From: Candidatus Marinacidobacterium sp.
Lineage (GTDB): Bacteria > Acidobacteriota > Vicinamibacteria > Marinacidobacterales > Marinacidobacteraceae
Direction of reading: 5' to 3'
Length of the DNA: 64,000 nucleotides
NCBI GenBank assembly: GCA_965204755.1
Contig: OZ242011.1
Span: 3,744,001 to 3,808,000 of the forward strand
Position 1 is the stretch's first letter, and every line of letters begins with the position of its first letter. The notes under the pieces are model-generated. The model worked only from the letters and a program-made list of their open reading frames with translations. It was not told the DNA's origin and ran no database searches. Of the stretch, positions 50,802 to 64,000 are shown piece after piece. The position numbers were made by a program, and so were the translations under genes.

Positions 50802-51578
50802 GTGGCCGTAACCATCACCGTCGCGAACCAGAAGGGCGGCGTCGCGAAGACCACGACCTCGGTGAACCTGGCGGCGGCCCTCGCGGCGGCCGGACGCGCC
50901 ACCCTGCTGGTGGACGCCGACCCCCAAGCCAACGCCTCGGTCACTTTCCTCGGGCCGGACCTCGAAGGGCCGACGATGTTCGAGGCGTTGACCGACGAAG
51001 CGAAGTTCCGCGACATCATCCGCGAGACGCCGGTGGAGGGCCTGTCCGTCGCCCCGTCCCGCATCTCGCTCGCCCGGCTGGAGCGCCAACTTCTCGGCGA
51101 CCTGGACGCGCACTACCGGCTGCGTGACCGCATCCAGACCACGCGGGGAGAATTCGACTTCGTGGTCGTGGATACGCCCCCGACGCTGGGCATGACCACC
51201 GTGAACGCGATGGTGGCGAGCGACTGGCTGCTCCTGCCGCTGCCCCCGGCCTACTACGCGCTCGAAGGCGCCGACGACCTGCTCGACACCCTCGAGCAGA
51301 TCCGCCGCCGCCCGAACCCGGACCTGGCGCTCCTCGGGGTGCTGATCACCATGGTGGACGGACGGACGCGGATCGCCCGGGATGCCGCTCGCCGGATCCG
51401 CGGCCATTTCGGCAAGGCGGTGTTCCGAACCCAGATCCGCCGCAATGTGCGCCTCGAAGAGAGCCCGGCCTACCGCGAGGACATCTTCGCCTTCGCCCCC
51501 TCGTCCGTCGGCGCCAAGGACTACCGGCGGTTGTCCCGCGAGGTGCTCGCCCGTGTCCAGGCGAACCGGTCTTCCTGA
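50802..51578 (+). CDS. parA: ParA/Soj family ATPase
   Basis: Motifs NQKGGVAKTT, VDADPQAN, DTPP, IRRNVRLEESP. Confidence 0.92.
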   Translation: MAVTITVANQKGGVAKTTTSVNLAAALAAAGRATLLVDADPQANASVTFLGPDLEGPTMFEALTDEAKFRDIIRETPVEGLSVAPSRISLARLERQLLGDLDAHYRLRDRIQTTRGEFDFVVVDTPPTLGMTTVNAMVASDWLLLPLPPAYYALEGADDLLDTLEQIRRRPNPDLALLGVLITMVDGRTRIARDAARRIRGHFGKAVFRTQIRRNVRLEESPAYREDIFAFAPSSVGAKDYRRLSREVLARVQANRSS

Positions 51579-52566
51579 CGCCGTGCGGCTCAAGCCGCGC
51601 GCCGGCCACTATGTGGAAGCCCTCGTCCCGGAGGAGCCGACTGCCGCGTGGCGAATGATTCCGGTCGCGCAGATCCACCCCAACCCGAACCAGCCCCGGC
51701 AGCGGATCGGCCGGCTGGACGCCCTGGTCACTTCCATCCGGGAGCACGGCGTCCTGCAGCCGATCCTGGTGCGGCGGCTGGGCGCCAAGGACTACCAGAT
51801 CATCGCCGGGGAGCGCCGCTTCCAGGCGGCCCGCCAGGCCGGGCTGCGCGAAGTGGCGTGCGTGGAGCGCGAGGCCGGGGAAGGGGAGTCGCTCGAACTC
51901 GCGCTCGTCGAGAATGTCCTGCGGGACGACCTCACGCCGTTCGAGGAGGCTTCCGCCTACGAGTGGCTCATCGAACAGCACGGCCACACCCACGAATCGT
52001 TGGCCCGGCGGGTCGGGAAGCCGCGGACCTCGGTTACCGAGTCCCTGGCGCTCCTGAACATCCCGGAGGGCATCCGCGAGATGTGCGCGGCGGCCGGTCT
52101 CCGGTCCCGTCGGCAACTGCTCCGGATCGCGCGACAGCCGGACGAGGCGGCGATGGCGGCGGCGGTCGAGCGCCTCGCCCGCGGCCTCGAGGCGGAGGAC
52201 GCGGCGGCGTCTTCCGGCCCCGCCGGCGCGACCGCGGAGAAAAAGCAGGAAAAGCCGACTCGACCGAAGCCGTTCGTCTTCCGCTTCGCCCCCCGGGGCG
52301 CGCCCTTCCGGCTGCAGATGACCTTCCGCAGGAGTCGGGTGGACGAGGGCGAGGTCCTCGAGGCGCTCCGCGATTTGGTGCGCCGGTTGGAGGAGTCCTC
52401 CGCCGGCGGCAGTGAGCCCGAGGGGGCGGAGGGAGCCGGGGAGCCCCGGGCGCCGGCTGCCGCGCCCGACGCCGCCGAACCGGGCGCGAACACCTCCCGA
52501 GCCGGGCGGGTCGCCGCTCCGATCCCTACCGCTCCGCCGGCGGTTCCCGAAGGCTCGAAACGCTAG
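51553..52566 (+). CDS. parB: ParB/Spo0J family partition protein
   Basis: Motifs PNPNQPR, GVLQPILVR, IIAGERRFQAA, ALVENVLRDDL, HTH. Confidence 0.9.
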   Translation: MSRRTGLPDAVRLKPRAGHYVEALVPEEPTAAWRMIPVAQIHPNPNQPRQRIGRLDALVTSIREHGVLQPILVRRLGAKDYQIIAGERRFQAARQAGLREVACVEREAGEGESLELALVENVLRDDLTPFEEASAYEWLIEQHGHTHESLARRVGKPRTSVTESLALLNIPEGIREMCAAAGLRSRRQLLRIARQPDEAAMAAAVERLARGLEAEDAAASSGPAGATAEKKQEKPTRPKPFVFRFAPRGAPFRLQMTFRRSRVDEGEVLEALRDLVRRLEESSAGGSEPEGAEGAGEPRAPAAAPDAAEPGANTSRAGRVAAPIPTAPPAVPEGSKR

Positions 52567-54856: not shown

Positions 54857-55764
54857 AACGGCCGCGGAGGGGGCGCCTCTCGGGGCGGACGCCGGCGTCC
54901 CCGGCGGCGCCGCTCGTCCTGGCCCTCCTCGCCGCGGGCTGTGGCGGGGGCGAGGAACCGGAGGCGCCTTCCCGGGTGGAAGAGCCGGCGGCGCCCGTCG
55001 AGACCCCGCGCGAGCCGTCGCCTCCGCCGCCGCCCGAGCCCGCTCCGGCGCCGCCGGCGACCGGGACGCTCGAGGTGGTCGGTACCGAGGGGGCTTCGGT
55101 GTTCCTCGACGGCGAGCCCGTCGGAACGGTGCCCGGCGTGTTCGCCGACCTGCCGGCGGGAGAACATCAGGTGCGGGTCGAGCGGGCGGACTTCCATCCG
55201 CTCGAGGTGGCGGTGACCATTCGGGGCGGCCGCAGCCGCACCCTCGACGCCCGGCTGGTCGAGAGGCTCGGCTCCATCGCGGTGGAGAGCGAGCCGGCGG
55301 GCGCGATGGTCTTCCTGAACCGGGACTTCAAGGGGAACACGCCGGTGGTCATCGAGGACCTGCGGCCGGACACCTACGCGCTGATGCTTTCCGTCGAGGG
55401 CTTCGATGTCCACAACGAAAGAGTGGAAGTCGGGAGGGCCCGGGTTCCGGTGCGCGTCGCGTTCGAGGCTTCGGCGGCGACCTTGGATGCGGCGGTCGAG
55501 GTGGTGCACAAGCACCGGTTCGGCTCCTGCGCCGGGACGCTGGTGGCGACGGAGTCGGGGTTCGACTACCGGACGGAGCACCGCGATGCGTTCGAGTTGC
55601 CGTTCGCCCGGGTCGAACGGTTCGAGTTGGACTATGTGGAGAACAACCTGCGGCTGAAAGTGCGCGGCGGACGCACCTACAACTTCGAGGCCCCGAACGG
55701 AGAGGTGGACCCGCTGTTCGTGTTCCACCGTGATGTCCAGGCGTTCCGGGAAGCGGGGAACTGA
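54853..55764 (+). CDS. PEGA-domain lipoprotein
   Basis: Lipobox LAAGC, Pro-rich linker, two PEGA repeats (GASVFLDG..GTVP; SEPAGAMVFLN..GNTP). Confidence 0.8.
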   Translation: MKRPRRGRLSGRTPASPAAPLVLALLAAGCGGGEEPEAPSRVEEPAAPVETPREPSPPPPPEPAPAPPATGTLEVVGTEGASVFLDGEPVGTVPGVFADLPAGEHQVRVERADFHPLEVAVTIRGGRSRTLDARLVERLGSIAVESEPAGAMVFLNRDFKGNTPVVIEDLRPDTYALMLSVEGFDVHNERVEVGRARVPVRVAFEASAATLDAAVEVVHKHRFGSCAGTLVATESGFDYRTEHRDAFELPFARVERFELDYVENNLRLKVRGGRTYNFEAPNGEVDPLFVFHRDVQAFREAGN

Positions 55765-55797
55765 CCACGCGGAGTCGTACATTCGCCTGCTTCTATT

Positions 55798-55825
55798 TCT
55801 TAACATAACATCTCTTATCGGAAGT
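55798..55825 (-). other. XerC/XerD dif recombination site
   Basis: Minus strand ACTTCCGATAA-GAGATG-TTATGTTAAGA, 11-6-11 layout. The XerD arm matches the E. coli TTATGTTAAAT core; the XerC arm begins like B. subtilis ACTTCC. Confidence 0.85.
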
Positions 55826-55868
55826 TGCCGGGTGCGCACTCCGCGCGCCCGGCATCATCCGATAAGAG
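55812..55868. repeat. Inverted repeat with a 26-bp stem that incorporates the XerC arm of dif
   Basis: 55812-55837 pairs with 55843-55868 (2 mismatches, 1 G-T); loop ACTCC. Confidence 0.8.
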
Positions 55869-56162
55869 CGCTCCGTTCTCCGAAGCGGCAAGGGCCTCGG
55901 CGCCGAAAGCCCGGTGTCGCGACGCTCCTCGGGGCCGCTTCCGATAGCGGACCGTCCAGCACCGGGCGCCGAATCTGTGTGGAGCGCGCCCCCGCATCGT
56001 CGGAGCGAGAGCGTTCCGTTATCCGATGCGACGGTCTCGGGACCGGATATTGATCGAGCCACTTGGTAGGCGACGATTGTTCCGGCGATCACCCTTATCA
56101 TCTGTCCCCGAAAATCTCGGCCGAGCCTCGGGTCACGGGCGTGGTTCTCTTCCGGTTCCACG

Positions 56163-58664
56163 ATGTCCTTCCGCAGTTTCCTGAAACGCCTGAGCGGCCC
56201 GCTCCGCGCTGTTCCCGTGCGCTTGATGGGCCGCCTGGTCCGCGTCTTCCGACGGGCTGACGGTTCGAGCGGGCCTGCATCTGGGTGTGGAGAGACGGGA
56301 CAGCCGGAGTTGAACGAATCAACGCCGGACAAGCGGTCAACCGGTTCGGAGCCCGCGGGCACTGCTTCCCCGGACATCGAAGACCGAGATGGACCGACGC
56401 CGGGGCGAAATGACGGCAGTTCGCATGCGCCGGCACCCCTGCCCCAAAAGCCGGGGTCGCCCAACGGCGAAGGGCGCGCCGCCGAACCCGAGCCGGAGGC
56501 GGAAGGGACGATGGACATCACACCGCCGGTTGACGAGAGCCATGCCGATGCGGCAACCGGAGGTGCCCTCCCGGACACGCCGACTCGCGAACCCGACGAC
56601 CGTGCTGATCCCGCGTCTGCGGAGCCAAGACCACCGACGGTGTCTCCGCCGCGAGTGACGACCGAGGGGTCGAGGAGAGCGGGAGAACCTTGGAGGTTCG
56701 GACCGCGTCGCACGCAACATGACTCTGCCCTCGGAATCCGAAGTGACGCGGGCGCTTCTCCACCCGAACTCAGGATTCGCTACGCCGGCGGCAGGTGGGA
56801 AGTACTGCTCTCGGTTGACCCGAAAGCAGGCCCGTCCGAAGTGCTGCAAGGTGGGAATCCGCTTCGTCCTGCTCGGGATGGGGCTTGGCGCGTGCCCGAT
56901 TTCCGGCGAGACATCGAGGTAAGAACCGACAACGCTGGCGACGCAACGATACCCCTCTACACAGGAAGAGAGCCGCTTATCTTCCGGCTACCGGGGGCCG
57001 ATGGCGAGGGAACTCAGCGTCGTCGAATGACCGATCGTGGACGGTATGTCGTAATCGCGCCGGCAGGAGAACTCCGCCGCGACGAGATCGCGGTCTTTCG
57101 GGAGCACGAACCCTGTGGCGATCATCGTTTTGTCGCACATTTCTTCGACTCGTCTGCCGGGAGGGGGGCGGAAACGGTCGAGGGTTTCCCGGAGTGGGAC
57201 TACGGCGCTACAACGGGAAGTGCCTCCTTGGCCGGGCGCTCTATTTTCGACAGTTCCGAAGACGGAAAGTTGTTCGTTGGAGACGCGCCGACTTTGGATT
57301 CGACGGACGGAATCAAATGGGCTCGCATCGGTGAAGAGCGAGAGGGTGGGTGGAAGGGACGGAACTTTCTCGTCGCAGAAGAGAAGCCAGGCGATGTCCT
57401 GAACGGGGCATGTGGGAGATTCTTTCTCCGCACATATCGAACGGGGGAGACGCATCTGGCCGACTCGCGATCGTTTCGCTATTGGCCTGACCTGGAGAGG
57501 ATCGAACTCAACGGGAGAAAATTCGACTCGGAGCGCATCCTGATTCCGGGCACAGCGGGGCATGGGAAGGCGACCGTTCGGTTGGTCGGCCGAGTCGGTA
57601 GCGATCTGAAATTCGAACTCATGAACACCCAAGGGGCATCAGTCTCCACCGACGGGACGATTGCGGTTGCTCCGGACATCACGGCAGACGAGTTGCGCGT
57701 GCGCCTTTGCCGCGCTCCGTGGCACATGGATTTGGTCGTCGCCCTGCCGAGGGTCTGGTGGCGGCTGCAAGGAGATCGGAGCAACTGGAAATCTACTCCG
57801 CTCTCCATGTCTCGTCGAGAGTTCCGGAGCATCGCAACTCAGCGGCTTGAGATGCTCGTGCCGGAGTCCATCCCATCCGTCGAAGCCACACTTGGAAGCC
57901 AAATCGGCGAGTTCCCTGCGACGAGAACTGACGAGTCCGTTCACAAACGACTCTGCGCCATTCCTCTTGAGTACTTCGCGGATCACTCTGCCCTTCAAGA
58001 CGCCGGCGCACGGGAAGACGCTACGATCCGCGCCCGACTAAACGGATCGGAGGTGTGCATCATACATGTGCCCCCTGAACGGCCGCGACGAGCACTCAAA
58101 CCCCAATCGTCGCCCGTCCCCGCTCCGCCACACGAGATGCCGGCGACGCCGAGCCGGACGGAGCACACGGTTCTCAAGAACAGCGTGGTCGCCGTAGGTT
58201 GCGTGAGGGTTCGGGAACGCGACAAGAACATCTCCTTCACGGCTATGGCGATCGTCAGCGACGGGAACGGCCGCGTCGGCGTCGGTCATGGAACGGGGCG
58301 CGATGTACCGGCCGCGACCAAGAAGGGAATCGAGATCGCGACGAAGAATCTGGTGTCGGTGCGGCGGCAGGGACGTACTATCGCCCATGAGGTCGTTGGC
58401 GCCTTCGGTGGCGTTCGTGTCCTGATGAGTCCCGCTCCGGAGGGAACGGGGATCGTCGCGCGTAGATCGACGCGGGCAGCGGTGCGGGCCGTCATCGAAC
58501 TGGCGGGGATCAAGGACATCCTGATCCGATCGAGCGGGACTTCGAACCAGGAAAAGGCCGTCGCGGCGGTCGTCGAGGGCTTGCGTTCGCTCCGCTCGCC
58601 AGAAGTCGTAGCCGAATCTTCCGAAAGGGAGACCGGAGAGAGTCTCCCTGAGACGAGGAGGTAG
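56163..58664 (+). CDS. Uncharacterised protein with a C-terminal ribosomal protein uS5-like domain
   Basis: Disordered N-terminus, beta-rich middle region, and residues ~671-818 resembling uS5 (SFTAMAIVSDGNGRVGVGHG..RDVPAA..K, PAPEGTGIVA, VRAVIELAGIKDI). Confidence 0.8.
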   Translation: MSFRSFLKRLSGPLRAVPVRLMGRLVRVFRRADGSSGPASGCGETGQPELNESTPDKRSTGSEPAGTASPDIEDRDGPTPGRNDGSSHAPAPLPQKPGSPNGEGRAAEPEPEAEGTMDITPPVDESHADAATGGALPDTPTREPDDRADPASAEPRPPTVSPPRVTTEGSRRAGEPWRFGPRRTQHDSALGIRSDAGASPPELRIRYAGGRWEVLLSVDPKAGPSEVLQGGNPLRPARDGAWRVPDFRRDIEVRTDNAGDATIPLYTGREPLIFRLPGADGEGTQRRRMTDRGRYVVIAPAGELRRDEIAVFREHEPCGDHRFVAHFFDSSAGRGAETVEGFPEWDYGATTGSASLAGRSIFDSSEDGKLFVGDAPTLDSTDGIKWARIGEEREGGWKGRNFLVAEEKPGDVLNGACGRFFLRTYRTGETHLADSRSFRYWPDLERIELNGRKFDSERILIPGTAGHGKATVRLVGRVGSDLKFELMNTQGASVSTDGTIAVAPDITADELRVRLCRAPWHMDLVVALPRVWWRLQGDRSNWKSTPLSMSRREFRSIATQRLEMLVPESIPSVEATLGSQIGEFPATRTDESVHKRLCAIPLEYFADHSALQDAGAREDATIRARLNGSEVCIIHVPPERPRRALKPQSSPVPAPPHEMPATPSRTEHTVLKNSVVAVGCVRVRERDKNISFTAMAIVSDGNGRVGVGHGTGRDVPAATKKGIEIATKNLVSVRRQGRTIAHEVVGAFGGVRVLMSPAPEGTGIVARRSTRAAVRAVIELAGIKDILIRSSGTSNQEKAVAAVVEGLRSLRSPEVVAESSERETGESLPETRR

Positions 58665-58672
58665 ATGGACCG

Positions 58673-61600
58673 ATGCCCCATCGAAAAGACATCGACCGGT
58701 GGGTCGAGAAGATTCGGTCCCGGTATACGAGTTATCTTGCGACCTCGTTCTACTTTCGTGACCCGGCGCTTCGGAAATCTTTCGGGGACGCGCTCGGTGG
58801 CGAGGAACTGCTTCGTGGCCCGTACCCGGAATACGGGCGCCGCTTCCCTAAGGGAGTCTCCGCCCGAGAGTTGGCCTCCGAGACGTTCCCGAGCGGGGCG
58901 GAGGACCTGTTCCCTGCCCTCTTGGACGGACGCCTCCACGCGCATCAGGAACGGGCGATTCGGGCTGCCCATTTCGAGAATCGGAACATCGTCGTGGCGA
59001 GCGGTACGGCCAGCGGGAAAACCGAGTGCTTCCTCTATCCGATACTGTTCTCCCTCTTCGATGAGCACTTGGCGGGGACCGTCGACGAGAACGGTGTTCG
59101 GGCGGTGGTTCTCTATCCGATGAACGCCTTGGTGAACGATCAGCGGGAGCGACTTGGTGAACTACGCCGAAGGCTGGACGGACACGGGTCCGGGTTTGAG
59201 TTCACTTTCGGTCAGTACATCGGCCAGACCCCCTACAACTCACGAGACAGGTTTCGGCACGGTGCCGAGCGCGGACGAAGCGCTCTGCCGGGAGAGATCG
59301 TTTTTCGAGAGGAGATGTGGGAGAAGCCGCCCCACATCCTGTTTACGAACTACTCGATGCTCGAGTACCTCTTGCTGCGCCCGCAGGACACGCCCCTGTT
59401 CGACGGCGGCAGGGGCAGACACTGGCGCTTTTTGGTTCTCGACGAGGCGCACGCCTACCGGGGAGCCAAGGGCATCGAGATGGCGATGCTCGTTCGTCGC
59501 CTGAAACAACGGTTGAGAGAGGGTGGACGGACGCGGCCGTTTCGGTGCATCGCCACCAGTGCGACGATTGCGTCCGGGCACGGCAGAGAGGATCGCAGGG
59601 CCGTGGCCGACTTCGCGACGACGCTGTTCGGTGAAGAATTCGAGGATGAGGGTGTCGTGTTCGGCCTTCCCGAGAGTCGATCTGGCGCCGAGTCGGGCGA
59701 CATTCGTCGTCACCATGTGTTCGTGAGGGCGCTGGAAGGCGCCTTCCTGCTGCACGAAGAGGGCCGTGACCGCGTCGTCCTGAATCGCGTCCTCGGGGAC
59801 GCGGGATCGAGAGCTCCGGCGGTTCCGCTCGAGATCGCGCTGTGTCGGGAGTGTGGCCAGCACTACTATGTCGGTCGGGTGAGGAACGGGAGGCTGGTCG
59901 AGGCCGTGCGCGACCGTAGTCGTGGAGATTTCGGAGTGGATTTTTTCCGTCCGCTGTCGACGGATGAACCGCAGGCGTCCGGCCTTTCGCTGTGCCGGAG
60001 GTGCGGGGCGATCGGCCGAGGCGCGACCGGGTGCGGTTGCGGTGTGGAGGCAGCCGTTCAGAAGTGTGCGAACCGACCCGGCCATCCGGACCAGATCAAG
60101 AAATGTGGGAGTTGTGAGTACGCCCGCGGCGGCGTCGGGGATCCGGTTCAGGAAATCGTGCACGGCGCCGACGGGCCCAACGCCGTTCTTGCTACTGCGG
60201 TGCATGAACTGCTGCCTTCCGCGTCGAGACGAATCCTGGCGTTCGCGGACAGCAGACAGGACGCGGCCTTCTTCGCGTGGTACGCGGAGGACTCGTACAC
60301 GACGATTCGAGATCGGAATCTCATGGCGAGGGCGCTTCGCCGGGGAACGGAGGGTTGGCGACGAACCGATGAGGGGGGCGACGAAGGGTTGTCGATCGGG
60401 GATCTGGGTCGTCGGCTCGCGGCAGTGCGTCGCGAACGCGGTCTGACGAAGGCCGCCGACAGTTGGGAAACCGAGATCCGGGCGTCCCATGAGGCCGTTT
60501 TGCGGGAGGCCGTCGCCGAGGATGCGAGGTTGTCACTATCCGGCGTGGGACTCGCGGCGTGGGCGGTGGCCATTCCGAGCGACTTGCGTGTTCCGGCCGA
60601 ACTCCTTGCGCCGCCGTGGAATCTCAGTCCGCCGGAGGCTCGTCTGCTGCTTGAGCACCTTCTCGACGGGTTCCGGAGAGAGCCAGCCTTGTGCCTTCCG
60701 AAGTCACCGGATTTCCCGGCATGGAAGGCGGTGAGCACCCGGCCGGCAATGGCGTTCGCGCGCGGAACGCCGGCCGGGAGAACCAAGGTTCGAGAGTGGG
60801 GAGGCGCGCGGAGCGCGGTCGTCAGCCGGTTCCTGCCGCGGGTCGCCGACGCCTCGGGGCTCAGCCTGGCCGCGGCGCAGGTGGCGAGCCGCAGTCTCAT
60901 GAAGGCGATCTGGGTGGCTCTCAGGGATCGCGACGAGGCGGTGCGCGCCGAGGATCGGATGCTCGAACGGGCCGGGTCCGAGGGAACTTTCGCGCTGAAC
61001 AGCGGATGGTTGCGAGTTCGCTCGGCTGGGGCATCGGAATTGTGGGAATGCGAGACCTGCGCGCGTTTGACCGCGCGAAACATCCGAGGCGTCTGCCCGC
61101 GCAACTGGTGCCCCGGAATCCTTGCGCCGGCGGATCGAGGACGGCTCGACGAGAATCACTATCGGTCCCTGTACGAAGCGACAGACCTGCCGCCGACCTT
61201 GAAGGCGGCGGAGCACACGGCGCAGTTGGCGGACGACGAAGCCAGACGACGGCAGGCCGAGTTCAAGAGCGGCGACATCCATCTGCTCAGTTCGTCTACT
61301 ACCTTCGAGGTCGGAGTCGATCTGGGAGCGCTCGAAGTGACTTTTCTGCGAAATGTGCCCCCGGAGCCCTTCAACTACGCGCAACGGGTGGGACGGGCGG
61401 GGCGAGCGGCGCGCACCGGCCTGGCGCTCACTTACTGTCGCCGCAGTCCTCACGATCTGCACCACTTCTCGAATCCGGAGTCCTTGATCGAGGGGCGGGT
61501 TACGCCGCCTCGGCTTCTCGTCTCAAACGAGCGGATCGTTACGCGGCACATGACCGCGATCGCTCTGTCGGCGTTCTTCCGCGACTCGAATCGTGGCCAG

Positions 61601-62953
61601 GGGCTGGGCAGCGTCGAGGAGTTCATCGGTCCGGACTGGCGCCCGGCGTCAGCGCCGGAGGCGTTGCGGCAGTATTGTGAGAGTGATCGGGCCCCGCTCA
61701 CGACACTGCGTAGCGTCGTTCCTTCGGACATGCACGAGACTGTGGGACTTCACGACGGCGGATGGGTCGGACGGATTGCGGGTCCCGAGAGCCGGCTCGC
61801 GCGCGCTGCGGAGGAAGCGTGTGATGAATTCCGGAAACTGCAGGAATTGGTGGCCGATTTCATGAAGACCCGCGACTCCAGAATCAACCGTCTGCATCGC
61901 AGGATGGACACGATCGCGGGGATGAATGTCGTCCAATTCCTCGCGAGAAAAGCGGTCATTCCGAAGTACGGGTTCCCGGTGGATGTCGTCGAGTTGCACA
62001 CCGGTTCTTGGCGTGAGGGCGGGTCCGTGCAACTCGACCGGGATCTTTCCTTGGCCATTTCGGAGTACGCCCCCGGAAGTCGCGTGGTCGCGAATAAACT
62101 CGAGTGGCAGTCGTGCGGTATCCGGAGAGTGGATGGGCGGGAACCGCCTCGGCGACTGTACGCCTACGACCGGCAACGCTTTCTCGCGACGAACCTCGGT
62201 GATGCGGAGGGGCTGGTAGACGGGCACCGCCCCAAGGGCAAGTACTTGGTGCCGGAGTTCGGGTTCGTCGTGTCCGACAAGGAGAAACCGAGGCCTCCGG
62301 AGCGTCGCAGCCAAAGGCTGTTTTCGACTCGTCCCTTCTTCAGGAATTTCGTGCGCACGGAGTCGCTCGTGGCCGAGAGATCCGTCTTTGGCGTGCACGT
62401 GTCGGAGCCGCAGCCCGGTGAACTCGTCGTCCTGTGTGAGGGGAAGGAGGAGGGAGGGTTTCACCTCTGCGGACAGTGTGGCCGGTATGCGGAGAAACCG
62501 GGACCGCAGCACACTACGCCTTGGGGAGGATCCTGCTCTGGGGTCTTCTCCAGGTTCTCGCTGGGGCACGAAGTGACCACGGATGTCGTCAGAGCCCGAT
62601 TCCCGGAAGCGCTGGATGTCGCGGGGCTCTACTCGCTTGCGTACGCCTTGGCGCTCGGCGCTGCGGATGCCCTCGCCGTGCCGCAGCAGGACCTCGATGT
62701 CACCTTGAGTGGCGACGCCATCGTTCTCTACGATGATGTGCCCGGGGGAGCGGGCCTCGTACGGCAATTGACCGACGAGAGGGCGTTTCGCCGGGTGCTG
62801 GTGAAGTCCCGCGAACGCGTCGACGGGCGATGCGGGTGCGACCGTAGTTGCTACGGGTGTCTTCGCAGTTATCGCAACCAGTTCGTTCACACCCAGCTGG
62901 ACCGCGGGAAGGCGCTCGCGGTGCTTGACGAGGCTCTTCGGCGGACCGGCTGA
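58673..62953 (+). CDS. SF2 DEAD/DEAH-box helicase with Zn-finger inserts and C-terminal DUF1998 (DruE/MrfA-like)
   Basis: Motifs HQ, SGTASGKT, YPMNALVNDQ, TNYSMLE, DEAH, ATSAT, FADSRQDAA, TTFEVGVD, QRVGRAGR; several CxxC; C-terminal YDDVPGGAG...CGCDRSCYGCL. Confidence 0.92.
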   Translation: MPHRKDIDRWVEKIRSRYTSYLATSFYFRDPALRKSFGDALGGEELLRGPYPEYGRRFPKGVSARELASETFPSGAEDLFPALLDGRLHAHQERAIRAAHFENRNIVVASGTASGKTECFLYPILFSLFDEHLAGTVDENGVRAVVLYPMNALVNDQRERLGELRRRLDGHGSGFEFTFGQYIGQTPYNSRDRFRHGAERGRSALPGEIVFREEMWEKPPHILFTNYSMLEYLLLRPQDTPLFDGGRGRHWRFLVLDEAHAYRGAKGIEMAMLVRRLKQRLREGGRTRPFRCIATSATIASGHGREDRRAVADFATTLFGEEFEDEGVVFGLPESRSGAESGDIRRHHVFVRALEGAFLLHEEGRDRVVLNRVLGDAGSRAPAVPLEIALCRECGQHYYVGRVRNGRLVEAVRDRSRGDFGVDFFRPLSTDEPQASGLSLCRRCGAIGRGATGCGCGVEAAVQKCANRPGHPDQIKKCGSCEYARGGVGDPVQEIVHGADGPNAVLATAVHELLPSASRRILAFADSRQDAAFFAWYAEDSYTTIRDRNLMARALRRGTEGWRRTDEGGDEGLSIGDLGRRLAAVRRERGLTKAADSWETEIRASHEAVLREAVAEDARLSLSGVGLAAWAVAIPSDLRVPAELLAPPWNLSPPEARLLLEHLLDGFRREPALCLPKSPDFPAWKAVSTRPAMAFARGTPAGRTKVREWGGARSAVVSRFLPRVADASGLSLAAAQVASRSLMKAIWVALRDRDEAVRAEDRMLERAGSEGTFALNSGWLRVRSAGASELWECETCARLTARNIRGVCPRNWCPGILAPADRGRLDENHYRSLYEATDLPPTLKAAEHTAQLADDEARRRQAEFKSGDIHLLSSSTTFEVGVDLGALEVTFLRNVPPEPFNYAQRVGRAGRAARTGLALTYCRRSPHDLHHFSNPESLIEGRVTPPRLLVSNERIVTRHMTAIALSAFFRDSNRGQGLGSVEEFIGPDWRPASAPEALRQYCESDRAPLTTLRSVVPSDMHETVGLHDGGWVGRIAGPESRLARAAEEACDEFRKLQELVADFMKTRDSRINRLHRRMDTIAGMNVVQFLARKAVIPKYGFPVDVVELHTGSWREGGSVQLDRDLSLAISEYAPGSRVVANKLEWQSCGIRRVDGREPPRRLYAYDRQRFLATNLGDAEGLVDGHRPKGKYLVPEFGFVVSDKEKPRPPERRSQRLFSTRPFFRNFVRTESLVAERSVFGVHVSEPQPGELVVLCEGKEEGGFHLCGQCGRYAEKPGPQHTTPWGGSCSGVFSRFSLGHEVTTDVVRARFPEALDVAGLYSLAYALALGAADALAVPQQDLDVTLSGDAIVLYDDVPGGAGLVRQLTDERAFRRVLVKSRERVDGRCGCDRSCYGCLRSYRNQFVHTQLDRGKALAVLDEALRRTG

Positions 62954-63335
62954 ATCGCCCGAATCCGGAGTCGCCCCGATGTCGGAGACGCCGAAGACCT
63001 TGATGCGGGAGGCCGGGATGAGTGGGCGATCGGGTAAGTCGGGGCGCCGGTATGCAGAGGACTACCGGCGGCGGATCGTGGAACTGGCGCGGGCCGGGCG
63101 TACGCCCGCGGATTTGGCCCGTGAGTTCGAGCCGAGCGCGCAGACGATCCGGAACTGGGTGGCGCAGGCGGATCGGGATGAGGGTCGGCGGTCGGACGGG
63201 TCGACGCGGGAGGAGCGGCGGGAGATCCGGGATTTGCGTCGTCAACTGCGGGATCTGAAGGAGGAGGTGGCCGTCCTGAAAGCGGCGCAGTCGTGGTTCG
63301 ATCGGGAGACCGAGTCCGACGGTTCCGATTCCTGA
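62951..63335 (+). mobile_element. IS3-family remnant (degenerate left end plus orfA; no orfB)
   Basis: TGAATCGCCC..TCCGGAG resembles IS3/IS51-group ends. orfA follows, and no integrase-domain ORF is present before the next gene. Confidence 0.65.
63018..63335 (+). CDS. IS3-family transposase OrfA (HTH)
   Basis: RRYAEDYRRRIVELARAG..LAREF..SAQTIRNWV..EIRDLRRQ..LKEEVAVLKAA; GGGAGG RBS. Confidence 0.8.
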   Translation: MSGRSGKSGRRYAEDYRRRIVELARAGRTPADLAREFEPSAQTIRNWVAQADRDEGRRSDGSTREERREIRDLRRQLRDLKEEVAVLKAAQSWFDRETESDGSDS

Positions 63336-63483
63336 CGGGCTCGGAGTCCCTGGTCCGGGCCTCGCCTGCCTCCCCTTCCCTCGCGCTTCTCGTCCGCCCG
63401 GTCGCCGTCGGGCGCGGAGCGGTTGGCCGTGTCGATGCCGGAGCGACTCGTCGCTCCCGGGCGCCGGTCCGGAATTCTCCGGC

Positions 63484-64000
63484 CTACCGGGTCCAGAGTT
63501 CGTGGAGGGATACGGCGAGGAGGCGGCGGTCGGGGAGGCGGTGGTTCTCGGGGCCGGTGTGGAGGATGAAGCCCCCGGCGAAGTCGTTGCCGCACCGGTC
63601 GGCGAGACGTTGGAGGCCCTTGCCGTCGGTCGGGCGGACGCTCCCGGAGGCCTTCACTTCGATACCCCAGACGCGTTCGTGGCGAGTCAGGACGAGATCC
63701 ACTTCCGCGCCGGCCCGGTCGCGGTAGTGGGACAGGCGCAGGTCGGGGTCGGTCCACGCCGCCTGCGCGGCGACCTGTTGGACGACGAAGGTCTCGAGCA
63801 AGGAGCCGAAGCGGTCCCGGCGTTCGAACCAGTCCGCTTCGGTGATGCCGGAGAGGGTGGCGGCGAGGCCGGCGTCCGCGAGGTGGATCTTCGCGGCCCG
63901 AGCCGGGCGCGGGACCGCGGGGTGGTGCCAAGCGGGAAGGCGGCGGATCAGGAACAGGCGTTCGAGGATGGCCAGGTACCGCTCCACGGTCGCCCGGTCG
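63484..64000 (-). CDS. AAA+ ATPase with DUF4143 domain (C-terminal part; 5' end lies outside the window)
   Basis: Motifs YLAILERLF, AKIHLADAGL, GSLLETFV, YRDRAGAEVDLV, GIEVKAS. Confidence 0.85.
   Translation of the reverse strand, partial: DRATVERYLAILERLFLIRRLPAWHHPAVPRPARAAKIHLADAGLAATLSGITEADWFERRDRFGSLLETFVVQQVAAQAAWTDPDLRLSHYRDRAGAEVDLVLTRHERVWGIEVKASGSVRPTDGKGLQRLADRCGNDFAGGFILHTGPENHRLPDRRLLAVSLHELWTR

Follow-up and report, generated by a model that had tools for sequence, protein, structure and literature searches.

Two adjacent genes lie beside a dif-like site in a 64,000-nucleotide stretch of a Candidatus Marinacidobacterium sp. genome (contig OZ242011.1), which is referred to here as the window. 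The first encodes a protein that carries a ribosomal protein domain, and the second encodes a large helicase. The locus raises the question of whether this pair is a defence system related to Druantia, and what a ribosomal protein domain could be doing in it. Druantia is among the most widespread helicase-based defences, and its sensing organisation is only now being worked out. The initial annotation, made from the nucleotide sequence, had proposed a pair similar to Druantia III.

The gene pair and its neighbourhood

The open reading frame calls agree with the two co-oriented genes, 8 bp apart, that had been described (Table 1). In one strain variant, the spacer between them is shorter by 1 nt. 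The stretch had also been called less GC-rich than the core, and this was borne out. Gene 1 has a GC content of 0.634 and gene 2 one of 0.646, compared to 0.724 for the whole window and 0.72 to 0.73 for the upstream genes. A GC content this high might point to an actinobacterium, but the organism is an acidobacterium.

Table 1. Features of the gene pair and its flanks, in positions of the window.
Feature	Position	Strand	Details
dif-like 28-mer, putative XerC/XerD site	55797..55824	-	about 340 bp upstream of gene 1
Gene 1, partner protein P0001	56163..58664	+	833 aa, ATG start
N-terminal low-complexity region, residues 1-189	56163..56729	+	presumably disordered, judged from sequence; ends in EPWRFGxRR-type motif
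Conserved core, tandem Ig-like beta-sandwich array, residues 190-636	56730..58070	+	AlphaFold2 model
Disordered linker between core and tail, residues 653-673	58119..58181	+	pLDDT <50, model residues 464-484
C-terminal uS5 module, residues 682-819	58206..58619	+	diverged second rpsE copy
Spacer between gene 1 and gene 2	58665..58672	.	8 nt, gene 1 stop to gene 2 start
Gene 2, compact DruE-family (YprA/MrfA-like) SF2 helicase P0002	58673..62953	+	1426 aa, ATG start
Walker A GTASGKT, residues 111-117	59003..59023	+	G111, T112, S114, G115, K116 and T117 invariant in 15 helicases
Walker B/DEAH box, residues 257-260	59441..59452	+	D257, E258, A259 and H260 invariant in 15 helicases
Helicase_C (RecA2), residues 842-912	61196..61408	+	Pfam E 6.4e-9; 38% identity to E. 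coli DruE here
MZB/DUF1998 zinc-binding domain, residues 1322-1397	62636..62863	+	PF09369 E 1e-9
Lone transposase OrfA-type ORF, IS remnant	62970..63335	+	HTH_Tnp_1, Pfam E 1.5e-9; 121 aa
DUF4143/AAA_14 ATPase gene, 3' part	63484..64000	-	extends to window-equivalent 64770

The dif site reported upstream of the pair is well supported. The 28-mer occurs only once in the 3.98-Mb genome when searched with up to 8 mismatches. With dnaA at 1.823 Mb, the 28-mer is about 11.5 kb from the point opposite dnaA on the chromosome, and the cumulative GC skew stops rising at the 28-mer. It is kept, with 2 mismatches, at the syntenic position in another genome of the genus (G001), where the gene pair is also syntenic beside it. 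Part of the 28-mer presumably resembles the E. coli XerD arm. Two tyrosine recombinase genes are present in the window's genome. XerCD-mediated integration at dif, as in an IMEX, was considered and rejected; a second, degenerate dif-like site is absent from the flanks at the same mismatch limit. An 11-nt repeat of the XerC-arm side is found at 55858-55870. Being inverted, it makes a hairpin with the dif-like site and does not flank the island.

Downstream of gene 2 is what had been called an IS3 remnant. A remnant is indeed present, as a lone OrfA-type ORF, and no OrfB was found after it; the IS3 label itself is one that we only presume. The ATPase gene that follows is the PADLOC candidate defence gene PDC-S01 (PDLC04790, E 1.7e-143; Pfam DUF4143, E 5.8e-42).

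A DruE-type helicase linked to an Ig-array partner

Gene 2 was confirmed as a DEAH helicase with DUF1998. Pfam identifies DEAD, Helicase_C, and MZB/DUF1998 domains, and the MZB cysteines C1387, C1389, C1393, and C1396 are invariant in 15 helicases. The PADLOC models place it in the DruE family, with E-values of 4.5e-139 for DruE1, 7.3e-137 for DruE3, 7.1e-116 for DruE2, and 3.4e-108 for DruE4, the DruE range starting from 1e-102. DruE1 gives 464 bits, compared to 340 bits for the compact DruE3 model PDLC00035 (1460 positions). The helicases at 14 other loci share 52-70% identity with that of gene 2. Alignment with E. coli DruE is limited to RecA1, a part of RecA2, and MZB, at 31-38% identity. 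The alignment stops at about residue 1712 of the 2104 in E. coli DruE, and no Pfam match to a PLD or other nuclease domain was found in gene 2.

Gene 1 encodes the partner protein. Its core was modelled by AlphaFold2 with a pLDDT of 90.0 and a pTM of 0.82, and it is nearly all beta. In Foldseek searches of the PDB, it matches the multi-Ig proteins SbsC, contactin, DCC, Robo, and NCAM2 (best E 5e-7), with low global TM. A W-W-R set and other columns of the core are invariant in the family. The N-terminal part varies from 6 to 453 aa among homologues, and in a 94%-identical strain it has replaced segments and indels; the EPWRFGxRR-type motif is conserved in the family consensus. The protein ends in a complete uS5-like domain, as had been described. 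Both Pfam domains are present, Ribosomal_S5 (PF00333, residues 682-734, E 4.7e-12) and Ribosomal_S5_C (PF03719, residues 746-819, E 3.3e-20), and the fold is full. The best 50 PDB matches of its AlphaFold2 model in Foldseek are all uS5, with target-normalised TM of 0.58-0.86 (mostly 0.75-0.85) and identity of mostly 33-43%. The partner has thus captured a ribosomal protein domain, as the initial annotation had proposed. It had also raised the concern that the fusion could be an assembly chimera. This is ruled out by contigs from three studies that span the core, the uS5 domain, and the start of the helicase. The same core and uS5 architecture is found in 22 of 182 family proteins, which also speaks against a chimera.

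The Ig core family comprises 388 representative clusters. The linkage of partner and helicase is conserved in other genomes, as had been anticipated for a two-gene system. Of 19 genomic loci, 17 have a full-length helicase as the next gene downstream of the partner, in the same orientation. These loci come from at least seven lineages, including Acidobacteriota, Latescibacterota, Poribacteria, Dehalococcoidia, Longimicrobiales, and Proteobacteria. At one locus (L009), no helicase accompanies the partner. From the helicase side, the only close homologue among 300 other genomes of the phylum is likewise preceded by the partner. A search for a third conserved gene at the loci found none. Many family members come from sponge-associated MAGs.

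The pair is patchy. It is present in 7 of 31 relatives and in none of the 12 outside the taxonomic family, and any DruE-like match is seen in 9 of 301 genomes of the phylum. Between two genomes of one genus, the partner has 45% amino acid identity and the helicase 69%, compared to 64-88% for the flanks. The patchy spread across phyla, the low GC content, the IS remnant, the adjacent defence candidate, and the fast-diverging partner are marks of mobile defence and not of housekeeping. They argue against a non-defence role, in which the pair would be a housekeeping or stress module, such as a YprA/MrfA-type repair helicase at stalled transcription-translation complexes, or would serve in ribosome or rRNA quality control. 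Such a role would fit with tails that point to ribosomes and RNA polymerase, with the synteny of the pair in two genomes of the genus, and with its absence from every phage, plasmid, or viral contig searched. The SF2 core with the MZB zinc-binding domain is also common to the repair helicase MrfA (PMC7797055). However, gene 2 is much larger than the MrfA/YprA helicases, is paired with an Ig-array protein, and scores as DruE; the repair-helicase model TIGR03817 gives 111 bits, with a cutoff of 874. MrfA, for its part, pairs with an MrfB-type exonuclease. A role outside defence is thus very unlikely.

Comparison with Druantia III

The proposal of a Druantia III-like pair was upheld in part. The DruE-family helicase and the co-oriented two-gene unit stand, while the partner is not detectably DruH. 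In the published accounts, DruH has about 1,100 aa and consists of an N-helical domain, six Ig-like domains, and a C-helical domain. The C-terminal helical domain binds DruE in P. aeruginosa, and the central Ig-like array matches ICAM/NCAM-type proteins in fold searches. Binding of ssDNA is reported for E. coli DruH, and DNA replication intermediates are the reported target of Druantia III.

The window's pair shares several features with Druantia III-A of E. coli ATCC 8739 and P. aeruginosa. The partner is upstream of a large co-oriented DruE-family helicase with DEAH, Helicase_C, and MZB regions, it has a tandem Ig-like array, and the two proteins probably also act as a sensor or adaptor plus a motor. 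In contrast, the window's helicase is about 680 aa shorter and is without the PLD nuclease region. Sequence homology between its partner and DruH is not detectable, and both helical end domains are missing from the partner, among them the C-terminal domain through which DruH binds DruE. A disordered N-terminus and an exchangeable module from a ribosomal or transcription protein are present instead. None of 37 family members matches the PADLOC models at E <= 1, whereas the genuine E. coli DruH matches 10 DruH3 models. With hhalign, the family profile has a 0.3% probability against E. coli DruH.

The pair could also be an ordinary Druantia III-B, with a very divergent DruH as its partner and the ribosomal tail as a lineage curiosity without mechanistic weight. 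III-B is described as a DruE without PLDs plus one partner without annotated domains (10.64898/2026.05.13.724758; PMC12458937). The window's compact, PLD-less helicase with its single partner gene agrees with this, and both DruH and the partner core match multi-Ig proteins in fold searches. The PADLOC miss is weak evidence, since the partners of other DruE-like helicases in the phylum also escape PADLOC; one of them gives a faint hhalign signal (5.6% probability) around the WWR motif. On the other hand, the published text on III-B makes no mention of ribosomal domains in its partner. Most of the 182 members have a nucleic-acid or expression-machinery module, under selection, and this counts against a mere curiosity. 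The DruH comparisons and the missing end domains speak against a divergent DruH. The word "ribosomal" has no occurrences in the Druantia and YprA papers checked. It is therefore quite improbable that the pair is only a III-B system. A literature search found no published description of such a fusion, in accord with the suggestion that no described system has it. Overall, it is probable that the two genes form a defence pair similar to Druantia, whose partner belongs to a new, modular family.

Tail swapping and the possible role of the tails

The C-terminal tail is the exchangeable part of the partner. Among the 182 members, 115 have an eL13-like tail, 22 have uS5, 6 have KH, 14 are Ig-only, and 25 have other tails or none. 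The types include eL13-like, uS5, uS17, bS18, S1, NusA-KH, CarD-RID-like, and others. At least 24 tail changes were counted on a tree of 156 cores, in which the KH and CarD clades are nested among uS5 bearers. A test set beforehand had asked if the C-terminal domain is swapped while the linkage to the helicase is kept, and both were found. Pfam supports the S5, KH_5, S18, and S17 (E 2.7e-27) tails. Other assignments are weak or borderline and below the Pfam cutoffs: S1 (18.8, cutoff 22), CarD_TRCF_RID (22.7, cutoff 23), and NusG (18.3, cutoff 22.2). The eL13-like tail is the dominant type in the family and is absent from the window's protein. Its family profile matches PDB eL13 chains with a best E of 6.1e-9, and among the best 60 PDB matches all but one, which is spurious, are eL13; Pfam L13e matched 3 of 37 members (best E 8.9e-5). 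Many tails, namely the winged-helix-like (wH-like) ones, tails B to D, and K/R-rich coils, are without a family assignment. We take nearly all of the identified tail types to be RNA-binding or RNA-polymerase-binding domains.

The fused uS5 modules differ in how closely they follow the host rpsE. The genome's own rpsE is at 1.338 Mb, and the window's fused copy, which lies outside the ribosomal protein operon, is 59.5% identical to it. With TIGR01021, the rpsE equivalog, the window's copy scores 116.9-121.3 bits, under the cutoff of 164.05, and the genome's rpsE scores 214.4. It shares both Pfam domains and the full fold with canonical uS5, but it is the C-terminal part of an 833-aa protein, its KVVKGGK loop has become RVRERDK, and it has a 4-residue insertion. 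The fold and some affinity for RNA are probably retained in the window's module, but it is no longer a faithful ribosomal subunit. Since canonical motifs are lost and the identity is low, it may bind something else or very little.

Two sister genomes, G001 and G005, have fused copies that are 90% and 92% identical to their host rpsE. These score 213.5 and 212.7 bits, pass the cutoff, and are equal to their own canonical rpsE. In G001, the synonymous sites are saturated (dS 1.09) and dN is 0.07, for a dN/dS of about 0.06. In G005, the fused copy has a dS of 0.39 to its own rpsE, compared to 1.1-1.4 to the other compared sequences, and it nests among canonical sequences. The cores of G001 and G005 are 42% identical and the tails 86%. 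A uS17 tail that is matched to its host class scores 100.7 bits, compared to 85.8 for the same host's own rpsQ. Thus, some fused uS5 and uS17 modules are under strong purifying selection. Degenerate uS5 tails also persist with the helicase, in the window, in G012 (33% identical to rpsE), and in P0019, P0029, and P0030. Purifying selection like that on a real ribosomal protein is hard to explain unless the tails still meet the natural partners of that protein or must imitate it. The initial annotation had offered two roles for the uS5 domain, a bait for phage factors that attack the 30S subunit or an RNA-binding module that loads the helicase; the selection analysis narrows these ideas and favours neither.

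The following mechanism could account for these features. Gene 2 would be the motor, by homology a 3'-to-5' translocase on the single-stranded DNA of an invader. Gene 1 would be the adaptor or sensor. Its Ig-like array would be the constant part, which presumably works with the helicase; the defence function, a contact between the two proteins, and the ligand of the tail are inferred. A flexible linker would join this array to an exchangeable module copied from the host gene-expression machinery. The tail would most likely serve as a tether that holds the partner on RNA or on a ribonucleoprotein. The uS5, uS17, and bS18 tails could target 16S rRNA or the 30S subunit, the NusA-KH and CarD-RID-like tails could target RNA polymerase or nascent RNA, and the eL13-like tails could target structured RNA. 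The helicase would then be positioned or licensed where foreign DNA is transcribed and translated.

This tethering mechanism is tentative, at somewhat less than an even chance, and the explanation as a whole, a blend of the defence pair and the tether, has about even odds of being the best one. Simple docking at the native ligand fails for most of the family, because the eL13-like tail has no bacterial ribosomal site. To our knowledge, eL13 is not a bacterial protein and has no cognate ribosomal site in bacteria. Also, Druantia III acts on DNA and DruH binds ssDNA in the published accounts, so nothing known so far ties Druantia to RNA or ribosomes.

The tail could instead be a general nucleic-acid handle. 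Ribosomal proteins would then be the handiest donors, and the tail would feed DNA to the helicase as DruH may with its ssDNA binding, with no link to ribosomes or transcription. The interchange of structurally unrelated tails (dsRBD-like/S5, the OB folds S17 and S1, KH, the eL13 hairpin, zinc ribbons, and HTH-like) is consistent with this, as are the action of Druantia III on DNA and the degenerate uS5 tails. However, a handle would have no need for whole-domain conservation at the level of a ribosomal protein over a dS of about 1, and a uS17 tail that scores above the host's own rpsQ would be unexpected. No CSD or RRM, which are common generic domains, was seen among the tails examined. The CarD-RID and NusG domains bind RNA polymerase and not nucleic acid, which would count against a handle if these tails are real. 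We consider a handle unlikely.

Another role could be that of an integrated decoy. The tail would mimic a host protein and bait phage takeover factors, and engagement would release or activate the helicase. In a related form, the host-matched uS5, uS17, bS18, and NusA-KH copies on the Ig scaffold would bait or report phage hijack factors, as a receptor or as a sentinel riding the ribosome, and license the helicase against invader DNA. The modules derive from core expression proteins of the host and not from generic RNA-binding domains, and they turn over rapidly and repeatedly while the core and helicase persist. The closeness of G001 and G005 copies to rpsE would fit with a decoy, and the low dS in G005 suggests re-capture or gene conversion that matches the bait to the host; the uS17 tail is likewise matched. 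By analogy, plant NLRs with integrated decoys, such as RRS1-WRKY, and the decoy idea for bNACHT11 also have a constant body and an exchangeable terminal domain derived from the host. For this bacterial NLR-related sensor, a decoy is proposed and not demonstrated (PMC11702601). In contrast to this analogy, the window's protein has no homology to these systems, and the commonest tail of the family, eL13-like, has no bacterial original to mimic. The window's uS5 (60% to rpsE) and the other degenerate tails would be poor mimics, and rRNA binding explains the native-like constraint equally well. No phage factor directed at uS5, uS17, or bS18 is known to us. Both forms of the decoy are, like the handle, unlikely.

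The tether thus remains the preferred role of the tail. It appears from the sequence and its homologues that the two genes form a self-contained defence module related to Druantia, of a kind so far undescribed. This would be a sizeable sister system, in which the DruE-type motor is retained and a shorter Ig-array protein with an exchangeable tail takes the place of DruH. In under-sampled phyla, the partners of DruE-like helicases escape the current models for finding defence systems. If the decoy or sentinel were true, it would be the first prokaryotic counterpart of the integrated decoys of plant NLRs and the first immune system directly wired to ribosomal proteins. Either reading, tether or mimic, links antiviral defence to the translation and transcription machinery in a testable way, and natural tail-swap variants are available for testing that link. 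The findings suggest that components of the gene-expression machinery may be built into immune sensing in some bacteria.

The gene pair and its surroundings

The window (G000:C1:3744001-3808000) lies in a genome assembled as a single contig of 3.98 Mb. Gene 1, which encodes the partner protein P0001, and gene 2, which encodes the helicase P0002, were found exactly where the initial annotation had placed them, with 8 nt from the stop of the first to the start of the second. The stretch is less GC-rich, as had been described; GC is 0.634 in gene 1 and 0.646 in gene 2, against 0.724 in the window and 0.72-0.73 in the upstream genes. An assembly chimera had been named as a possible artefact. This is ruled out, as the fusion is bridged by contigs from three studies (sequencing runs X1, X7, and X8). 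The X1 and X7 contigs have 0 differences across it; X1 is possibly the source sample, so it does not count as independent support. The X8 contig is 30 kb long and ~94% identical. The 94%-identical pair occurs in contigs from runs labelled sponge metagenome, and its differences are mostly N-terminal, with coding indels in frame. In the X8 strain, gene 1 shows replacement or indels over its first ~85 codons, as does the intergenic region before it; the skips there are separated by 260 and 446 other letters. Elsewhere the two genes are collinear. Gene 1 thus encodes a hypervariable, disordered N-terminus.

A dif site had been proposed beside the pair, and this is well supported. The dif-like 28-mer sits 11.5 kb away from the point opposite dnaA, and the cumulative GC skew flattens out there. 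It is kept with 2 mismatches in the same-genus genome G001, and the pair is directly downstream there as well. A nearby gene with ParB_N and HTH_ParB domains raised doubt on the dif reading, which the position of dnaA (1.823 Mb) resolved in favor of dif. This gene is near the terminus, not the origin, and could be a paralogue of the ParB type that serves a different function. An IMEX reading of the island is unsupported; a second dif-like site was not found in the genome. The XerC-arm side of the dif-like site and an 11-nt copy ~35 nt downstream form an inverted repeat that encloses a GC-rich palindrome. The repeat could be a terminator, overlapping dif, of the upstream PEGA-domain gene, or a regulatory hairpin. 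A scan of 55600-63500 returned 0 promoter-like sites and 8 terminator-like sites (6.0 +/- 2.8 in shuffles).

Downstream of the pair are a lone HTH_Tnp_1 transposase ORF and then a DUF4143/AAA_14 ATPase, which stands directly after this IS remnant and matches a PADLOC candidate defence family. The region at dif may be a small defence islet. Between the window's genome and G001, identity is 64-88% for flanking genes, 69% for the helicase, and 45% for the partner.

Positions of the gene pair, neighboring features, and features in other loci
Feature	Position	Strand	Remarks
Gene 1 (P0001, 833 aa)	window 56163-58664		ORF; co-oriented with gene 2
Gene 2 (P0002, 1426 aa)	window 58673-62953		ORF; co-oriented with gene 1
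dif-like 28-mer	window 55797-55824		unique in genome
Inverted repeat at dif	window 55812-55870
Region altered in X8 strain	window 55871-56418
ParB_N + HTH_ParB gene	window 51382-52566	+	~4 kb from dif-like site
DUF4143/AAA_14 ATPase	window 63484-64000, on to G000:C1:3808770 (L041:1485-2771)	minus	PADLOC PDC-S01, E 1.7e-143
Gene after PDC-S01 match	L041:2936-3862		HATPase_c_4 domain; weak matches to pAgo-associated models
Partner frame, Longimicrobiales MAG	L016:8594-13888		without stop
Partner at MAG contig end	L009:9281-11764		eL13-like tail
DruE-like helicase locus with large upstream gene, other Acidobacteriota	L087:2741-5767

The helicase and its relation to Druantia

Gene 2 had been described as a helicase with DUF1998, and Pfam identified DEAD, Helicase_C, and MZB/DUF1998 zinc domains in P0002. 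The best PADLOC matches were to DruE1 (4.5e-139), DruE3 (7.3e-137), DruE2 (7.1e-116), and DruE4 (3.4e-108); those to DpdJ, DrmA, and repair-helicase models were far weaker. The alignment with the DruE of E. coli ATCC 8739 (2104 aa) is limited to RecA1 (37% identity), the C-terminal part of RecA2 (38%), and the MZB region (31%). The ~390 C-terminal residues of E. coli DruE have no counterpart in P0002, in which Pfam found no nuclease domain. PMC12458937 assigns the C-terminal region of E. coli DruE to PLD domains. Orthologues at 14 other loci share 52-70% identity with P0002, and the Walker A motif, DEAH box, and MZB cysteines are invariant across the set.

According to two papers (PMC12458937; 10.64898/2026.05.13.724758), type III Druantia consists of DruH and DruE; in Druantia III-B, DruE is compact and lacks PLDs, and its partner has no domain annotated. 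DruH is reported to bind ssDNA, and in P. aeruginosa to contact the DruE Stalk through its C-terminal helical domain. The pair in the window had been read as Druantia-III-like. The helicase half of this reading held; the partner is not a DruH by sequence. E. coli DruH matched 10 PADLOC DruH models (best 2553 bits), and 0/37 members of the partner family matched any PADLOC model at E <= 1. As a caveat, other DruE-like helicases in the phylum likewise have partners that go undetected by PADLOC. Alignment of the family profile with E. coli DruH by hhalign gave a probability of 0.3%. The Ig-array theme is all that the two have in common, and the partner is without the DruE-binding domain of DruH. 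With the DruE partner of another genome, G184, the hhalign match was faint (probability 5.6%), and that protein had no BLASTP match to E. coli DruH. The word "ribosomal" is absent from the main text of the Druantia and YprA papers checked, and full-text literature searches returned no description of such a system.

Among 301 genomes sampled across the phylum, 9 have any DruE-like match, the window's genome included. Only G104 has a close homologue of P0002 (51-58% identity), and a partner core is directly upstream of it (E 3.7e-55). The G104 homologue covers residues 5-1110 on one contig and 897-1418 on another (L073, L081; C8, C9), either as two copies or as a split or rearranged gene. The distant DruE types in the phylum (30-35% identity to P0002, 1633-2170 aa) have unrelated genes upstream. 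Three loci of other Acidobacteriota (L087, L088, and L089) hold DruE-like helicases of 1633-1718 aa with large upstream genes, for example of 1009 aa, and these upstream genes did not match PADLOC models, E. coli DruH, or the partner family. DruE partners are thus more diverse than has been described.

A partner family with exchangeable tails

Residues 1-189 of P0001 are of low complexity, and the length of this region is highly variable among relatives. Residues 190-636 were modelled with AlphaFold2 (128-sequence alignment) as an almost all-beta array (pLDDT 90.0, pTM 0.82), followed by a disordered linker and an alpha/beta domain. In Foldseek, the core matched proteins with tandem Ig-like domains, among them SbsC, contactin, DCC, Robo, and NCAM2 (best E 5e-7), with the low global TM expected for a beads-on-a-string array. 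A protein atlas search with the core gave no usable match. The uS5-like end of gene 1 is confirmed by both Pfam S5 domains and by the top 50 PDB fold matches, all of which are uS5 chains (target-normalised TM 0.58-0.86, mostly 0.75-0.85; identity mostly 33-43%). It is a second, diverged uS5 copy in the genome. On TIGR01021, the real rpsE (1.338 Mb) scores 214 bits and the fused domain 117-121, below the cutoff of 164.

With residues 190-670 of P0001 as query, a word-indexed search found 36 relatives, and an exhaustive one gave, at E <= 0.001, 388 representative clusters, 237 of them at E <= 1e-30. A scan of one genome per species yielded 19 partner loci spanning Acidobacteriota, Latescibacterota, Poribacteria, Dehalococcoidia, Longimicrobiales, Alpha- and Gammaproteobacteria, and others, many with sponge-symbiont titles. 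Linkage to the helicase is conserved; a full-length relative of P0002 directly follows the partner on the same strand in 17/19 loci. The exceptions are L021, a weak fragment, and L009, with a partner only. L009 is at the end of a MAG contig, and no DruE-like helicase was found in the remaining 4.9 kb downstream or elsewhere in the locus; its partner is an orphan. No third conserved gene was found in the 6-kb flanks of 18 loci, where the best cluster was common to 3, same-genus synteny aside. The pair is a real, conserved two-gene unit.

Within the order, the partner is present in 7/31 relatives, the window's genome included (6/18 in the family, 0/12 in the two other families). A pattern scan of viral contigs and tblastn with the core against plasmids and phages gave no match. 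Many carriers (L003-L020) are MAGs with sponge-type names, namely Poribacteria, Ca. Poriferihabitaceae, Ca. Spongiihabitans, and Ca. Marinacidobacterium, and several of the runs X8-X11 are labelled sponge metagenome. Going by these names and labels, the system may be enriched in sponge microbiomes.

The tails of 182 family proteins were classed with HMMs of our own, seeded on tails classified by Pfam. The eL13-like tail is the commonest (115/182, preceded by an extra Ig-like domain in 81), followed by uS5 (22) and NusA-type KH (6); 14 proteins are Ig-like only, and 25 have another tail or none, some being truncated. The eL13-like tail is spread over P0031-P0183 and loci L009, L011, L012, L014, L017, L018, and L020. 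The homology to eL13 has independent support from the family profile, which matches PDB eL13 chains and nothing else credible (best match the 157-aa chain 9e6q_AH, E 6.1e-9). As a ribosomal protein, eL13 is not known outside archaea and eukaryotes. Pfam on 37 members gave Ribosomal_S5 in 17, S5_C in 20, KH_5 in 5, Ribosomal_S18 in 1 (E 9.2e-21), and Ribosomal_L13e in 3, and the tail of locus L010 matched Ribosomal_S17 (E 2.7e-27). Below Pfam cutoffs were S1 (18.8 bits), CarD_TRCF_RID (22.7, cutoff 23), and NusG (18.3). In L016, the partner frame stays open across a stretch weakly similar to NusG and goes on to encode a complete SNF2-related helicase (SNF2-rel_dom E 2e-61, Helicase_C E 2e-25), with a DruE-like gene after it. 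Either the variant has three motors or a neighbouring gene has become fused.

The initial annotation had asked if the C-terminal domain is swapped while linkage to the helicase is kept, and this is the case. A FastTree of 156/182 cores, leaving out 26 that cover <380 of 481 query positions, requires 24 tail-class changes, with a minimum possible of 10 and a shuffled-label mean of 53. One clade (support 99) holds 20 uS5, 6 KH, 3 CarD-like, and 1 bS18 tails, with the KH and CarD-like clades nested among uS5 bearers. There is a separate uS5-like gain inside an eL13 clade.

Selection on the tails and possible modes of action

The host lineage is the source of the fused uS5, which some lineages still conserve like a genuine uS5. 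Against the rpsE equivalog model, the fused domains score 213.5 bits in G001, 212.7 in G005, 121 in the window's genome, and 89 in G012. In G001 and G005, these scores equal those of canonical rpsE (213.8 and 211.5). Identity to the host's own rpsE is 90, 92, 59.5, and 33% in the same four genomes. Nei-Gojobori estimates for fused against canonical uS5 were dS 1.09 and dN 0.07 in G001, dS 0.39 and dN 0.047 in G005, and dS 1.14 and dN 0.30 in the window's genome; the canonical copies of the latter and G001 differ by dS 0.75 and dN 0.024. The G001 copy is thus old but under strong constraint. That of G005 looks like the product of re-capture or gene conversion; a quick uS5 tree places it among canonical sequences of the family. 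In that tree, which omits five short or degenerate fused rows (FUSED_G012, P0073, P0029, P0019, and P0030), 16 fused copies form one weakly supported group, and no well-supported branch opposes a single origin of fused uS5. The partners of G001 and G005 have cores that are 42% identical and tails that are 86% identical. The uS5 clade of the window is released from canonical constraint; its domain has RVRERDK in place of the KVVKGGK loop and a 4-residue insertion. The uS17 tail of the Dehalococcoidia locus behaves like the constrained uS5 tails. Its Pfam score is 100.7 bits, where the host's own rpsQ (uS17) reaches 85.8, and it is closest to Dehalococcoidia uS17 (55-64% identity, against 42-52% for other phyla).

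A constant helicase and Ig core with a variable tail on a flexible linker suggest a motor plus an adaptor. The helicase would be the motor and the partner the adaptor, presumably bound to it, with the tail as its input or targeting end. In their native context, nearly all of the identified tail families are known as binders of RNA or of RNA polymerase. Together with the ribosomal-protein-grade selection on some tails, this favors a tail that would tether the partner either to RNA or to the machinery of ribosome and RNA polymerase. If the tail were instead an integrated decoy for a host protein, the host-matched uS5 and uS17 tails would fit as well as or better than under tethering, but the decoy reading fails for the dominant eL13-like tail, which has no known bacterial original to imitate. 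A generic nucleic-acid handle would accommodate the diversity of tails and the degenerate ones but not the strong constraint on others. The pair appears to be a new Druantia-like defence variant, and its modular partner belongs to a family not previously described. That such a probable defence protein has recruited ribosomal protein modules is unexpected, and it is backed by the selection evidence.
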